A stretch of 64,000 bases of DNA, from NCBI RefSeq assembly GCF_003018255.1, contig NZ_CP027441.1. One strand, 5' to 3'. Position 1 is the first letter of the stretch. Each line of letters opens with the position of its first letter. Source of the DNA: Escherichia coli (GTDB lineage: Bacteria > Pseudomonadota > Gammaproteobacteria > Enterobacterales > Enterobacteriaceae). The position numbers are program-made. Positions 39,001-42,000 of this stretch are shown here, one piece after another.

Positions 39001-42000
39001 GGGGTGCCGGGCCTGTAATATCTCCAGAGCATCACCGTCCAGCACACGAATAACGAGTCCCTGAATTTGAACGGCACAGACAGAACCGGAAAGCAGAAGA
39101 GTGAGTGCGAATATATATTTTATCATTTTATATTTTCCTGATTTATTTTTATGGGGATGACGTTAATATTACGCGTTGAAAAAATACATGTTTTTATCTT
39201 CTGAGGCACCTGACTTCACGGAGGATATTTATTCCTGTAGGCTAATAACTGTGTCTGGGTAAACAACAGATATCTGGTGGCGATATGCAGGAACGTATTG
39301 ATTATCATATTGAGAAATATCAGTTCAGGGCGAGGAATGAGTCTCCACGACTGATGCGTCAGTGGGCTTATGTCATGCGTGAATGCCGGGAGACCAGGGC
39401 TGGAGCCAGGGAGCGACTGCGGACAGCATTACTGAATGTTGATGATGTGACCAGTTTTGAGCTGCCGTTTCGTCTGCTGTTAACCCGGACACCGCAGATG
39501 ATTGACACTCTGCGTCGGGAATGGCTACTCAGCCAGAAAAAAGCCCTGTTCAACGGGCGGCTGCGGGGATGTGTATACAGTCTGCAGAATGACTTATCCG
39601 GCGTGCCGGATTGTTTCAGCTACAGTCTTGCGACGCGAATACGGCGGATGGACTGCTATGGCATGACGGCACGTTGTTTCACTGATATCGCCGGGCAGGT
39701 TAAAGCCCCGACGGCACGACTGAAACTGGCGCTGGAAAGCGGGTTGCTGGTAACGGCACTGGATGGCCTGTTCTGGCTGGGAACTCAGCGAATTGCCGCT
39801 GATGTGCAGAGACTGCGTCAGTCAGGTATGGTGATAGTCACCCGGGAAGTTGAGGTGTCAGATGCCCTGACCGGAACCACCAGACTGAGTTCCTGCTGTA
39901 AAGACTCCCGTCCAGTAACCAAGAATGACATCATTTGGATTCACTTCACCGTTAATCAGTAACCCGATGCCGGCATTCGCTCCTGCACCTATCAGACTTG
40001 TAGTGGCTGCCGCCCCTGGCAATAGCGGCCATACCATTGCACTTCCCATCGCTGCAACTGCTGTTTCACACGAAACCGGCGTACCACCACTGCACGCCTC
40101 TCTAATCGCAGTCTGCTGCTCTTCCTGCCATTTCTCTGCAGTCCCTGCTTTGTTCGCTTCCGCTGCTGCCAGTACATGCGCCAGTGAGTTATTCTCAACG
40201 ACAAAAATCCCGATCATTACATATGAATTATTTGTTAACGGACACCAAAAATCCAGAAGACCAAACCGGTTGGTACACCTAATAAACTAATTTTTAAAAT
40301 TGTAATGAGCTCCTCTTTTCCGAAAGGGAAAGGTTTATCAAAGTCCCAGACTAACCACCCCTTAAGAAGGTAAGAAAAGATCCCGAGAATAATTAAAGCT
40401 ATACACATAAAAAAACACATAACTAGCAATGCCTTTATGGATTTATTAGTACTATTTAGCCTCATTTTCACCTCCAGATACATTTTTCTTCAAAGTATCG
40501 CCGGCTACTCCTGAAACAAAAGAATCACCTAAATTCCCCATAATTGATGGAACAGAGCTTTGTTGTGCTGGTTTAGTTATGGTCCATACACCAGTCGGGA
40601 CCCACTCATATTGCTTTGATACAGGGTTAAGAACCTTGTCCATTGGTATCTTGATAAGGTTACCAGTTGCATAACCAGCATCGGCACCAGCCTTACTTAA
40701 TATGGCAGAAATGAATGGATCATCTCCACTTATTTCTCCTTGATAATAACCGCCTACTGCATTCCATGTCACGGTTGGATTATAACCTTTACCAGCAGTA
40801 TGTCCTACCCACGTAATATGGACACAGGCCTAAGCGAGGTTCTGGTTTTCAAATTGTTCCGGACTGAGGCCGCCACACCAACTGTGCTGTCGCCAGCGAG
40901 TGTAATCACATTCGATATAATTAAACACCGTTGCCCGCATTATTTCCCGGCTGATAAAGTGTTCTCCATGGATACATTCCACTTTCAGCGAATGAAAGAA
41001 GCTTTCCACGCAGGCATTATCGTAGCAGCAACCTTTTGCGCTCATACTTCCACGCAGATTATGCCGCTTCAGTTGCGCCTGATAATCTGCTGAACAGTAC
41101 TGGCCTCCACGGTCCGTGTGAACGATAACGTTCCGGGGCCTCTTACGCCGCCACAGCGCCATCTGCAGGGCATCGCAGGCCAGTTGCGCCGTCATGCGTG
41201 GCGACATTGACCAGCCAATAACGGCACGTGACCACTGCCAGATACAGCCAGCCTTCATCTGTACGTAAGTACGTGATGTCTCCTGCCCACTTCTGGTGCG
41301 GGCCACTGGCGTAAAAATCCTGCTCCAACAGATTTTCTGACACAGGCAGGCCGTGTGCGCGGTAGCTGACCGGGCTGAACTTCCGGGAGGCCTTTGCCCT
41401 CAGTCCCTGACGGCGCAGGCTTGCCGCCACGGTTTTTACGTTAAAGGGGTAACCCTGAGCACGCAGTTCATCCGTCAGGCGTGGGGCACCGTAACGCTGT
41501 TTTGACCGGGTAAAAGCCGCGAGGACAACGCTGTCGCAGTGTTGGCGGAACTGCTGACGCGTGCTTATCCTTGTCCGCCGCTGACATCACGTATACCAGC
41601 CGCTGCGGGCCACCCGGAGCACGCGGCACATTGCTTTGATGCTGAACTCAGCCTGATGTTTTTCAATAAAGACATACTTCATTTCAGGCGCTTCGCGAAG
41701 TATGTCGCGGCCTTTTGGAGGATAGCCAGCTCTTCATCCCGTTCTGCCAGCTGGCGTTTGAGACGTGCAATCTCGGTAGACATCTCCAGTTCACGTTCAG
41801 AAGACGTCTGCTGATTTTGCTGTTTACTGCGCCAGTTGTAGAGCTGTGATTCATACAGGCTGAGTTCACGGGCTGCGGCAGTAACACCGATGCGTTCAGC
41901 AAGCTTCAGGGCTTCACTGCGAAATTCAGGCGAATGCTGTTTACGGGGTTTTTTACTGGTTGATACTGTTTTTGTCATGTGAGTCACCTCTGACTGAGAG

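Follow-up and report, generated by a model that had tools for sequence, protein, structure and literature searches.

The window analyzed here, a 64,000-nt stretch of Escherichia coli contig NZ_CP027441.1, represents a pO113-type STEC virulence plasmid. NZ_CP027372.1 was 100% identical to the window, and the remnant region described below was also found in EH41 (pO113), EH53, and 94-3024. The layout of pO113/pO104_H21-type STEC megaplasmids, with espP, saa, iha, and subAB followed by a large "hemagglutinin-like" gene, was shared with the window. In Newton et al. (2009; PMC2681110), this gene, LH0189, is described solely as an adhesin-like protein; it is cdiA. Term searches of that article returned no passage on the remnant, and no paper was found in a literature search for pO113 and contact-dependent inhibition (CDI). 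The features identified in the window are listed in Table 1. The junctions at 39887/39888 and 40800/40801 were located to the base.

Table 1. Features of the cdi remnant and its surroundings in the 64,000-nt window
Feature	Position	Strand	Remarks
ECs1377-family winged-HTH plasmid-backbone gene, codons 1-201	39285..39887	+	lacks the final 6 codons and the stop
Read-through tail of the VENN ORF (QSGGSGQGI, then stop)	39858..39887	-	antisense to the ECs1377-family gene
Read-through tail of the 225-aa ORF	39888..39962	+	24 codons antisense to the orphan stump, then stop; fusion artefact
Orphan cdiA-CT fragment, 3′ truncated	39888..40217	-	group-5 (PuuP/PlaP-type) ionophore; MIGIFV plus VENN (40188-40199)
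cdiI for group-4 ionophore, intact, unannotated	40235..40483	-	directly 3′ of the CT stop in intact loci
cdiA 3′ remnant	40452..40800	-	final 115 codons plus stop of a CdiA-CT of the group-4 ionophores (FWSEC0108-type)
Promoter-like hybrid site (candidate only)	40779..40806	-	-35 AGGACA in the IS3 right inverted repeat; -10 TATAAT in cdiA-derived DNA
Degenerate IS3, 1243 bp	40801..42043	-	alignment with K-12 IS3
Fragment of another IS orfA, then saa upstream region	42044..42162	-	ORF 42006-42134; not cdiA
Main cdiA body up to VENN (60634-60645)	60634..64000	-	upstream partner from which the remnant was parted

On the minus strand, a frame was open from the IS3 end down to 40452 (H at the junction, followed by TAGKGYNPTVTWNAVGG and ending in ENEAK and the stop), in agreement with the 5′-truncated toxin-like ORF that the initial annotation had placed against IS3; the ORF call within this frame was 40452-40772 from GTG (106 aa). 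The ORFs assigned to the remnant were thus real, whereas its proposed upper end (40802) was not retained, since the cdiA-derived DNA stops at 40800. The DNA of this toxin stump was 99.3% identical to cdiA of pRM14516 (WP_097742568.1). Its first whole codon corresponded to residue 183 of the CT, leaving 115 of 297 CT residues, and neither VENN nor the entry domain nor the beginning of the ionophore domain is preserved. We found 48 homologues, and all of the informative ones were CdiA C-termini or cdi orphans. Searches of the three minus-strand ORFs against Pfam and NCBIfam gave nothing significant.

Small-xxx-small runs, as expected of a glycine zipper, were found at residues 149-163, 177-185, and 213-228 of the group-4 CT. 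The last of these lies inside the remnant, and it is within this glycine-rich motif that the window lineage carries a Gly-to-Asp change. The stump was also frameshifted by 5 bp in pJNE120442-1, and in pOkiPb01697_1 both the stump and cdiI were wholly lost via a further IS3-adjacent deletion. An AlphaFold2 model of the full 297-aa group-4 CT, built from an alignment of 25 sequences (the CT and 24 homologues), had a mean pLDDT of 38.7 and was confident only at residues 8-51. The ionophore domains of the group-4 and group-5 CTs represented here were homologous (33% identity, E=4e-17).

The small membrane protein reported next to the toxin ORF was recovered as an 82-aa ORF with two hydrophobic segments (Kyte-Doolittle) at residues 13-46 and 58-81. 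Judging from the Shine-Dalgarno sequence GGAGGTG that precedes it, the true start is probably the ATG at 40465 (76 aa). The toxin gene and cdiI overlap by 14-32 nt, the CT stop included. At 76-82 aa, its product is small and very hydrophobic with two segments and is encoded directly after a CT, as is characteristic of CdiI. The protein did not differ from the CdiI encoded by the intact loci of pRM14516 and SCU-171, the sole DNA difference being synonymous, and the gene was 100% identical in 38 plasmids, so that no variation was seen among copies. The ORF following the homologous CT in Arsenophonus exhibited 31% identity to it (E=2e-7). No similarity to the window cdiI was detected for the 77-aa ORF after the Cedecea homologue, and BLASTP revealed no relationship between the group-4 and group-5 CdiI proteins. 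This cdiI is the sole intact piece of the remnant.

The third minus-strand ORF (39858-40217) contains VENN as initially described, yet does not start at it: the product begins MIGIFVVENN, VENN being residues 7-10. Counted from the V of VENN, the orphan stump holds the first 104 of 214 CT residues and is cut after residue 104. Its identity was 98% with both the 3′ region of cdiA in E. coli CFS3273 (WP_159373418.1) and the orphan on pRM14516; the latter orphan is complete and has its own 84-aa hydrophobic immunity gene. In the window, only 6 codons precede VENN, half of the ionophore domain is missing, and the orphan's own immunity gene has been deleted.

The convergent 225-aa ORF on the plus strand (39285-39962) does overlap the 3′ end of the VENN ORF as first noted, and its function is not obscure as had been stated. 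It is an ECs1377-family gene that reads through the junction, matching NCBIfam NF052300 with E=1.4e-83 at aa 17-200 (279 bits, above the cutoff of 190) and covering profile positions 2-185 of 190; the end of the profile is unmatched because the junction cuts the gene. Of the two HMM searches that had been proposed, this one thus identified a family, whereas the toxin ORF at 40452 had no Pfam or NCBIfam match. An intact 207-aa homologue adjoins nuc in NZ_CP013024.1, where homology to the window stops at 39887, and a three-way alignment showed a sharp switch of homology at 39887/39888. The orphan stump is therefore fused tail-to-tail to the ECs1377-family gene, and the overlap is mutual read-through across a deletion junction and not a designed arrangement.

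The initial annotation further held that the post-VENN segment of this ORF parallels the entry region of the main CdiA-CT. BLASTP of the two segments with VENN included gave 22% identity over 74 aa (E=0.002, for a single comparison). With VENN removed, the local alignment had z=0.86 and was matched by 186 of 1000 shuffles, so that the similarity was not above chance, and the orphan did not align with the module at 53103-53993 past VENNxL. No similarity beyond the motif was thus found, an outcome that the initial annotation had itself named as contrary to its reading. The conclusion that this region is a cdi remnant survives because much stronger evidence exists: the 913 bp at 39888-40800 (minus strand) matched the 3′ end of the intact cdiA-cdiI-orphan array on pRM14516 with 99.3% identity, so the minus-strand ORFs are not chance. 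The description of a degraded, IS3-cut polymorphic-toxin remnant, in the order of toxin 3′ end, membrane immunity protein, and VENN-led orphan, accordingly stands.

IS3, a member of the IS3 family, is typically about 1258 bp long, with TG...CA ends, orfA and orfB joined by a programmed frameshift, and a 3-bp target duplication. The copy in the window, the ends of which were set by alignment to K-12 IS3, was 98% identical to the latter but has lost 14 bp inside orfB and 1 nt from the right terminal repeat, and it is annotated as frameshifted. An inverted-repeat search for its ends with a seed of 9 found nothing. The flanking bases, GTA and CAA, differ, so the 3-bp target duplication is absent. 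On the far side of IS3, homology to pRM14516 begins at 42163. The element is a decayed copy that departs from the standard form of IS3, and the sequences on either side of it have different origins.

In the window, IS3 and 19.8 kb lie between the remnant and the cdiB and cdiA body that would deliver it, whereas these parts are contiguous in pRM14516 and NZ_CP027311.1. The sequence at 28815-40800 was collinear with NZ_CP027311.1, which continues upstream unbroken through the remaining CT and VENN to the cdiA body (matching 60635-64000 of the window), with cdiBA beside the same repA. The main cdi locus thus originally ended with the sequence now found in the remnant. Compared with NZ_CP027311.1, the 19.8 kb stands in place of just 534 bp after VENN, and these 534 bp had no match anywhere in the window's own plasmid record. 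NZ_CP027311.1 has its own later ISEc23 insertion in cdiA, so no clean ancestor was present among the plasmids examined. For the main cdiA body, identity was 96% with L007 8653-12027 and 95% with cdiA of pRM14516, the match ending exactly at VENN. The cdiA of the window plasmid and that of pRM14516 shared 99-100% identity over most of their length and 92-98% in the last ~3 kb before VENN. Homology between strains broke at the VENN codons at both places; that between the window and SCU-171 ended at 40188, and that between the main cdiA and pRM14516 at 60635. Taken together, these data indicate that 39888-40800 very probably formed the 3′ terminus of the only cdiBAI locus of the plasmid before being displaced.

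The initial annotation had instead counted the remnant as a second locus, that is, an independent cdi locus or orphan array dispersed by IS activity apart from the main one. In favor of such an origin, IS3 borders the piece, the VENN of the main cdiA is 19.8 kb away, and cdi modules of this kind do occur elsewhere, for example on the SCU-171 chromosome. It is nevertheless improbable and already largely refuted by NZ_CP027311.1, which shares the ECs1377-family/nuc/espP junction and has the remnant contiguous with the repA-proximal cdiBA; by the same contiguity in pRM14516; by the orthology of the main cdiA to those genes exactly up to VENN; and by the finding of only one cdiB in the inspected 30 kb of the window's plasmid record.

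The 106-aa ORF (GTG at 40772) could also be read as a glycine-rich membrane toxin that acts by itself, in the manner of a bacteriocin or a toxin-antitoxin system, and is restrained by the 82-aa protein. Both ORFs are open and overlap in an operon-like manner, a promoter-like site lies at the IS3 junction, and the pair is kept in 38 plasmids. We consider this reading very improbable, given that the 106-aa ORF simply constitutes the 3′-terminal part of the gene for a 3229-aa CdiA, broken at an arbitrary codon, that the entry domain and the first conserved ionophore stretch are missing from it, and that it has no match in Pfam or NCBIfam; moreover, it carries the frameshift in pJNE120442-1 and the Gly-to-Asp change in the window lineage, and its deletion in pOkiPb01697_1 showed no sign of addiction. 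Even less credit, practically none, can be given to the labels in some RefSeq records, which read "adenylate cyclase" for the 106-aa ORF and "DNA-binding protein", as a full-length gene, for the 225-aa ORF. The former label was rejected, as no cyclase domain was found in Pfam or NCBIfam and the homologues point to CdiA; the latter applies to a truncated 201-codon ECs1377-family gene extended by 24 antisense codons.

The displaced 3′ terminus was compared with known CDI systems. In Halvorsen et al. (2024, PLoS Genet, PMC11630599), CDI ionophore toxins are described as depolarising target cells, group 4 being YciB-dependent and group 5 PuuP/PlaP-dependent, with a glycine-zipper GxxxGxxxG in the ionophore domain and a C-terminal five-helix bundle plus an N-terminal entry domain; all of their immunity proteins are hydrophobic two-helix hairpins of 72-100 residues. 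In the S1 Appendix of the same paper, WP_097742568.1 stands beside FWSEC0108 (WP_136795121.1) in the group-4 block with identical search statistics, WP_159373418.1 (CFS3273) is placed in the group-5 block, and the cdiI of the FWSEC0108 subtype is entered as "unannotated" (PMC11630599). Relation to these catalogued members, at 99.3% (group 4) and 98% (group 5) identity, places both toxin pieces in the ionophore family.

The group-4 FWSEC0108 pair shares with the window the toxin DNA, glycine-rich zipper-like motifs, and a small two-segment hydrophobic cdiI downstream, but the window stump has no VENN, YciB-type entry domain, ionophore start, or CdiA body and carries the Gly-to-Asp change. Similarly, the VENN-led ORF was 98% identical to the CT of WP_159373418.1, one of the group-5 PSU-3786-like toxins in the catalogue, but the window orphan ends after residue 104 of 214 and has no immunity gene and no secretion or delivery part. 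The intact homologues have PF04829 (PT-VENN) immediately before these CTs (E=1e-20 and 4e-17). Since the group-4 piece is without VENN and the orphan has only IFV-VENN, membership in the CdiA-CTs is by descent (99% DNA identity) and not that of a working member. As the group-4 stump is missing VENN, the entry domain, the beginning of the ionophore domain, and the CdiA body needed for delivery, we infer that it can be neither delivered nor inserted in the membrane, and both toxin pieces are expected to be inactive. Orphan cdiA-CT/cdiI modules reportedly occur downstream of cdi loci. The window resembles them in that the main cdiI is followed by a CT fragment led by VENN and by immunity genes, but differs in that a former main CT and its cdiI were made a distal fragment by a 19.8-kb replacement bringing virulence genes, and in that the module was cut by IS3 inside the CT and not at VENN.

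Parsimony among three or four extant plasmids suggests an order of events. The ancestral state, kept on pRM14516, would have comprised repA, cdiB, cdiA with the group-4 CT, cdiI, the orphan group-5 CT, and the orphan's cdiI. A deletion would then have joined the orphan CT, after residue 104, tail-to-tail to the ECs1377-family/nuc/espP backbone module, a state kept in NZ_CP027311.1. In a later step, the 19.8 kb may have been substituted for the 534 bp just after VENN, bringing in a divergent cdiA 3′ tract with a new CT and cdiI, more orphan modules, IS110, IS66, subAB, iha, saa, and IS3. The left boundary of this block, in cdiA, is consistent with homologous recombination, and the right boundary is the IS3 end that lacks a target duplication.

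The surviving cdiI most likely still encodes a two-helix inner-membrane protein, which would neutralise the cognate group-4 ionophore from neighbouring E. coli. Such residual immunity would need transcription, either by read-out from IS3 or from an internal promoter. The hybrid promoter candidate had 10 of 12 matches; a promoter and terminator scan was not above the shuffled level (4 promoter-like sites vs. 3.3 expected), and Rfam gave no match over 38000-42500. That the immunity is still functional is a tentative possibility that we somewhat doubt. The more specific proposal that pO113-type STEC plasmids retain the toxin-less cdiI as a functioning immunity gene in its own right, transcribed from the hybrid promoter with its -35 in the mutated IS3 terminal repeat, appears rather unlikely. 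Among complete genomes, immunity-only carriers outnumbered armed carriers by 38 to 3.

The remnant is an ordinary genomic fossil of a toxin family already known since 2024, and it leaves the general understanding of CDI unaffected. The annotation of a virulence plasmid family that has been widely sequenced can be corrected: what is now labelled "hypothetical protein", "adenylate cyclase", or "DNA-binding protein" comprises stumps of a cdiA-CT and of an orphan CT, a cdiI that had gone unannotated, and a chimeric ECs1377-family gene. The remnant also provides a base-resolved example of a CDI locus changing its toxin other than by a clean VENN-to-end cassette swap: the 19.8-kb replacement imported the saa, iha, and subAB virulence block at once and left the old immunity gene behind. 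If cdiI were expressed, it would be a natural case of immunity kept without the toxin on a pathogen plasmid, and if it does work as a stand-alone gene, these strains would be immune to the group-4 ionophore of carriers of the ancestral-form plasmid without the cost of the weapon.

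All four ORFs reported by the initial annotation, including the convergent 225-aa ORF, were present in the ORF listing. The reading frame of the toxin-like ORF abutting IS3 was open up to the IS3 end, and the small membrane protein was an 82-aa ORF with two hydrophobic segments. The minus-strand ORF said to start at a VENN motif was also real, except that VENN (40188-40199) was located within MIGIFVVENN and not at the very first residues. No family was recognised by Pfam or NCBIfam in the three minus-strand ORFs.

Gene order around the remnant (from RefSeq annotation and the ORF listing) and in the main cdi array (positions in the window)
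Feature	Position	Strand	Remark
espP	34341-38243	-	RefSeq/ORF listing
thermonuclease (nuc) pseudogene	38740-39243	-	between espP and the 225-aa ORF
225-aa ORF	39285-39962	+	RefSeq: ECs1377 family / DNA-binding
toxin-like ORF	40452-40772	-	RefSeq: hypothetical or adenylate cyclase
IS3	40801-42043		annotated as frameshifted
saa	42387-43880	+	
iha, subAB, then main cdi locus	right end of window		
cvaC fragment (short)	~56300-56375		next to cvi, inside the orphan array of the main cdi locus
colicin V immunity gene cvi (78 aa)	56351-56587	-	between IS110 and the orphan CT modules
two further VENN-led orphan modules	57254-59209	-	glycine-rich C-termini (AGAWYLGPAAS.GKV.GGG...), one frameshifted
candidate cdiI (100 aa)	59661-59963		after the main CdiA-CT
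current main CdiA-CT	59950-60633	-	ends in DUF4258 (PF14076), E = 6e-7

A megablast search of 5,426 complete E. coli genomes with 39880-40828 as the query matched 53 records, 40 of them with at least 80% query coverage; among the matches listed, these were STEC-type plasmids throughout. Window 40800-39888 was 99.3% identical over 913 bp to plasmid pRM14516 (NZ_CP043938.1), where the matching stretch took in the 3' end of cdiA (intact, 3229 aa), an unannotated small ORF, and a VENN-led ORF of 220 aa that has an 84-aa ORF of its own. The SCU-171 chromosome likewise carried this cdiA 3' end with the small ORF, and its homology ended at window 40188, precisely at the final base of the following module's VENN codons. 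The VENN-led piece (40202-39877) matched, at 98% identity, the end of strain CFS3273's main cdiA, where the CT is encoded. Because of these matches, the three ORFs are assigned, in order, as a CdiA-CT reduced to its last 115 codons, the cdiI that belongs to it, and the first 104 post-VENN residues of an orphan CdiA-CT. Near-identity to intact loci is what establishes the cdi origin of the remnant. The similarity proposed earlier between the orphan post-VENN segment and the main CdiA-CT failed on its own terms, since nothing significant was found beyond VENN: with the motif removed, z was 0.86 and 186 of 1,000 shuffles reached the score. The segment was likewise dissimilar to the other orphans of the window.

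The 1.9 kb around the remnant was 100% identical to large LEE-negative Shiga-toxin E. coli plasmids (e.g., NZ_CP027372.1 and NZ_AP042513.1), and the region was also carried by EH41 (the pO113 strain) and 94-3024. The nuc pseudogene had an internal stop in the lineage of the window plasmid; the gene was intact in NZ_CP013024.1 and in pO104_H21, the plasmid of 94-3024.

The remnant had been regarded as a second one, separate from the main cdi locus, which was contradicted by plasmid NZ_CP027311.1 of strain 2014C-4135, where the same sequence was contiguous with cdiBA. This plasmid contained, unbroken, cdiB, cdiA (carrying an ISEc23 insertion private to this plasmid), the full CT, cdiI, the orphan stump, the ECs1377 chimera, nuc, and espP. 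Window 28815-40800 was collinear with it (97.6% over 12 kb), and window 60635-64000, covering the main cdiA up to VENN, was 96% identical to the segment just upstream. That plasmid also carried the 534 bp encoding the N-terminal half of the group-4 CT, for which the window's own plasmid record had no match. Because both flanks are contiguous in NZ_CP027311.1, 40801-60634 (19.8 kb) stands in place of these 534 bp; it contained IS3, saa, IS remnants, iha, subAB, IS66, a VENN orphan, IS110, cvi, two orphans, and the present cdiI and CT. We consider this comparison to demonstrate that the remnant was once the terminus of the main cdi locus and was displaced from it by a replacement carrying virulence genes.

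The window cdiA was 99-100% identical to that of pRM14516 over most of its length and 92-98% identical over the ~3 kb preceding VENN, a drop pointing to a foreign cdiA stretch that arrived together with the new CT array. This suggests that homologous recombination formed the left boundary and an event associated with IS3 the right one. Since pRM14516 keeps the complete orphan, the full array was probably followed by the ECs1377 fusion and then by IS3 and the 19.8-kb replacement. In pO104_H21, the main cdiA region had a different downstream gene set without the extra orphan modules of the window, and the remnant was unchanged; a 94-3024 CdiA placed in group 3 in the S1 Table of Halvorsen et al. 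(2024; PMC11630599) may be the product of this plasmid gene.

The cdiA-derived DNA stopped at 40800, where IS3 began. Compared with K-12 IS3, this copy had a 14-bp deletion in orfB, and its right terminal repeat (40801-40809) was TGTCCTACC vs canonical TGATCCTACC, a 1-nt deletion changing GGATCA to GGACA. Comparison of the IS3 flanks revealed no 3-bp duplication, and the far flank, instead of cdiA, comprised a fragment of a different IS and then DNA from upstream of saa. By both observations, IS3 marks the endpoint of a rearrangement rather than a simple insertion. The repeat deletion also produced an outward-facing terminal hexamer, AGGACA, that is a better -35 match and lies 16 nt from TATAAT in cdiA-derived DNA. 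IS3 copies bracketed saa in the window (40801-45100) and in pO104_H21 (3902-8516 in locus coordinates), where both were intact and inverted and saa was flipped relative to the window; IS3-saa-IS3 looks like an invertible or composite unit.

At the other end, the 225-aa ORF belonged to the ECs1377 family by NCBIfam (E = 1.4e-83), with the match limited to residues 17-200. A three-way alignment placed a blunt switch of homology at 39887|39888, with the ECs1377-family gene on one side and the orphan CT, in reverse complement, on the other. The intact gene encodes 207 aa, and many IncF and IncI plasmids carry it paired with nuc; the window copy had lost 6 codons and then read 24 codons into antisense toxin DNA, and the VENN ORF read 9 codons into antisense ECs1377 DNA. 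Because both ORFs run across the switch, their convergent overlap is explained as mutual read-through over a deletion junction. In CFS3273, an ECs1377-family homologue (369-992 in locus coordinates; ~79% DNA identity over 127 bp) was found just upstream of a chromosomal cdiB, so such genes and cdi loci adjoin in more than one context.

CDI ionophore toxins are described as combining a variable entry domain with a five-helix ionophore domain at the C-terminus; their sole common motif is a glycine zipper, and their CdiI proteins, of 72-100 residues, form two-helix hairpins (Halvorsen et al., 2024; PMC11630599). The S1 Appendix of that paper lists the pRM14516 CdiA (WP_097742568.1) beside FWSEC0108, a named YciB-dependent group-4 member whose cdiI is entered as "unannotated," and includes the CFS3273 CdiA (WP_159373418.1) in the PuuP/PlaP-dependent group-5 block. 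Our sequence tests agreed with this group assignment: the C-terminal domains of the two CTs were homologous (33% identity, E = 4e-17), 48 stump homologues occurred across Enterobacterales, several in cdi arrays, a small ORF after a homologous toxin in Arsenophonus was 31% identical to the window cdiI (E = 2e-7), and PT-VENN (PF04829) directly preceded both CTs in the intact genes. No Pfam family covered the toxin domains of the two intact CTs, and the predicted CT structure was too poor in quality for helix mapping. Many short stump homologues in Erwinia, Sodalis, Serratia, Lonsdalea, and Mixta are labelled "adenylate cyclase" in RefSeq, a name without domain support that looks like a propagated misannotation.

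Regarding the other modules, multi-pass membrane ORFs (DUF2569 and others) followed the two orphans at 57254-59209, which are probably further ionophore-type cassettes. The position of cvi sets the immunity gene of a different bacteriocin system among CDI immunity genes. Another orphan stump, starting with V(D/E)NNLLGGSEW, was found in pRM14516 (~15500-15600) and SCU-171 (~14580-14800; both in locus coordinates), in the latter replacing the window-type orphan exactly after VENN; it matched the VENN region of TMC005 (group 5) deduced from primer CH3953 as given in PMC11630599. In a comparison of SCU-171, pRM14516, NZ_CP027311.1, and the window, the cdiBA with this group-4 CT was located within ~10 kb of subAB on plasmids as well as on the SCU-171 chromosome, which suggests that the linkage of cdi and subAB moves as an IS66-flanked block.

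The toxin stump is decaying: it had a 5-bp frameshift in pJNE120442-1, in the window lineage a Gly had become Asp (40681), and in pOkiPb01697_1 IS3 adjoined ~39995, with stump and cdiI absent. The cdiI was 100% identical across 38 plasmids and differed by a single synonymous base from three loci with the whole toxin; as all 38 trace back to one event, their identity has no bearing on selection. A GGAGGTG Shine-Dalgarno sequence preceded its ATG at 40465, one -35/-10-like pair spanned the IS3 junction, and a second was within the stump; promoter-like sites around the stump were no commoner than in shuffled sequence. Residual immunity from this cdiI is conceivable and, in our judgement, less likely than not.

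The remnant is real, well explained, and ordinary: a fossil whose toxin-immunity type is already catalogued, on a plasmid that is well known. There are two useful additions. The annotation is corrected, with a cdiI that had gone unannotated and an ORF recognised as chimeric, and the remnant is shown to be the former terminus of the same cdi locus, moved off by a 19.8-kb replacement bringing virulence genes.
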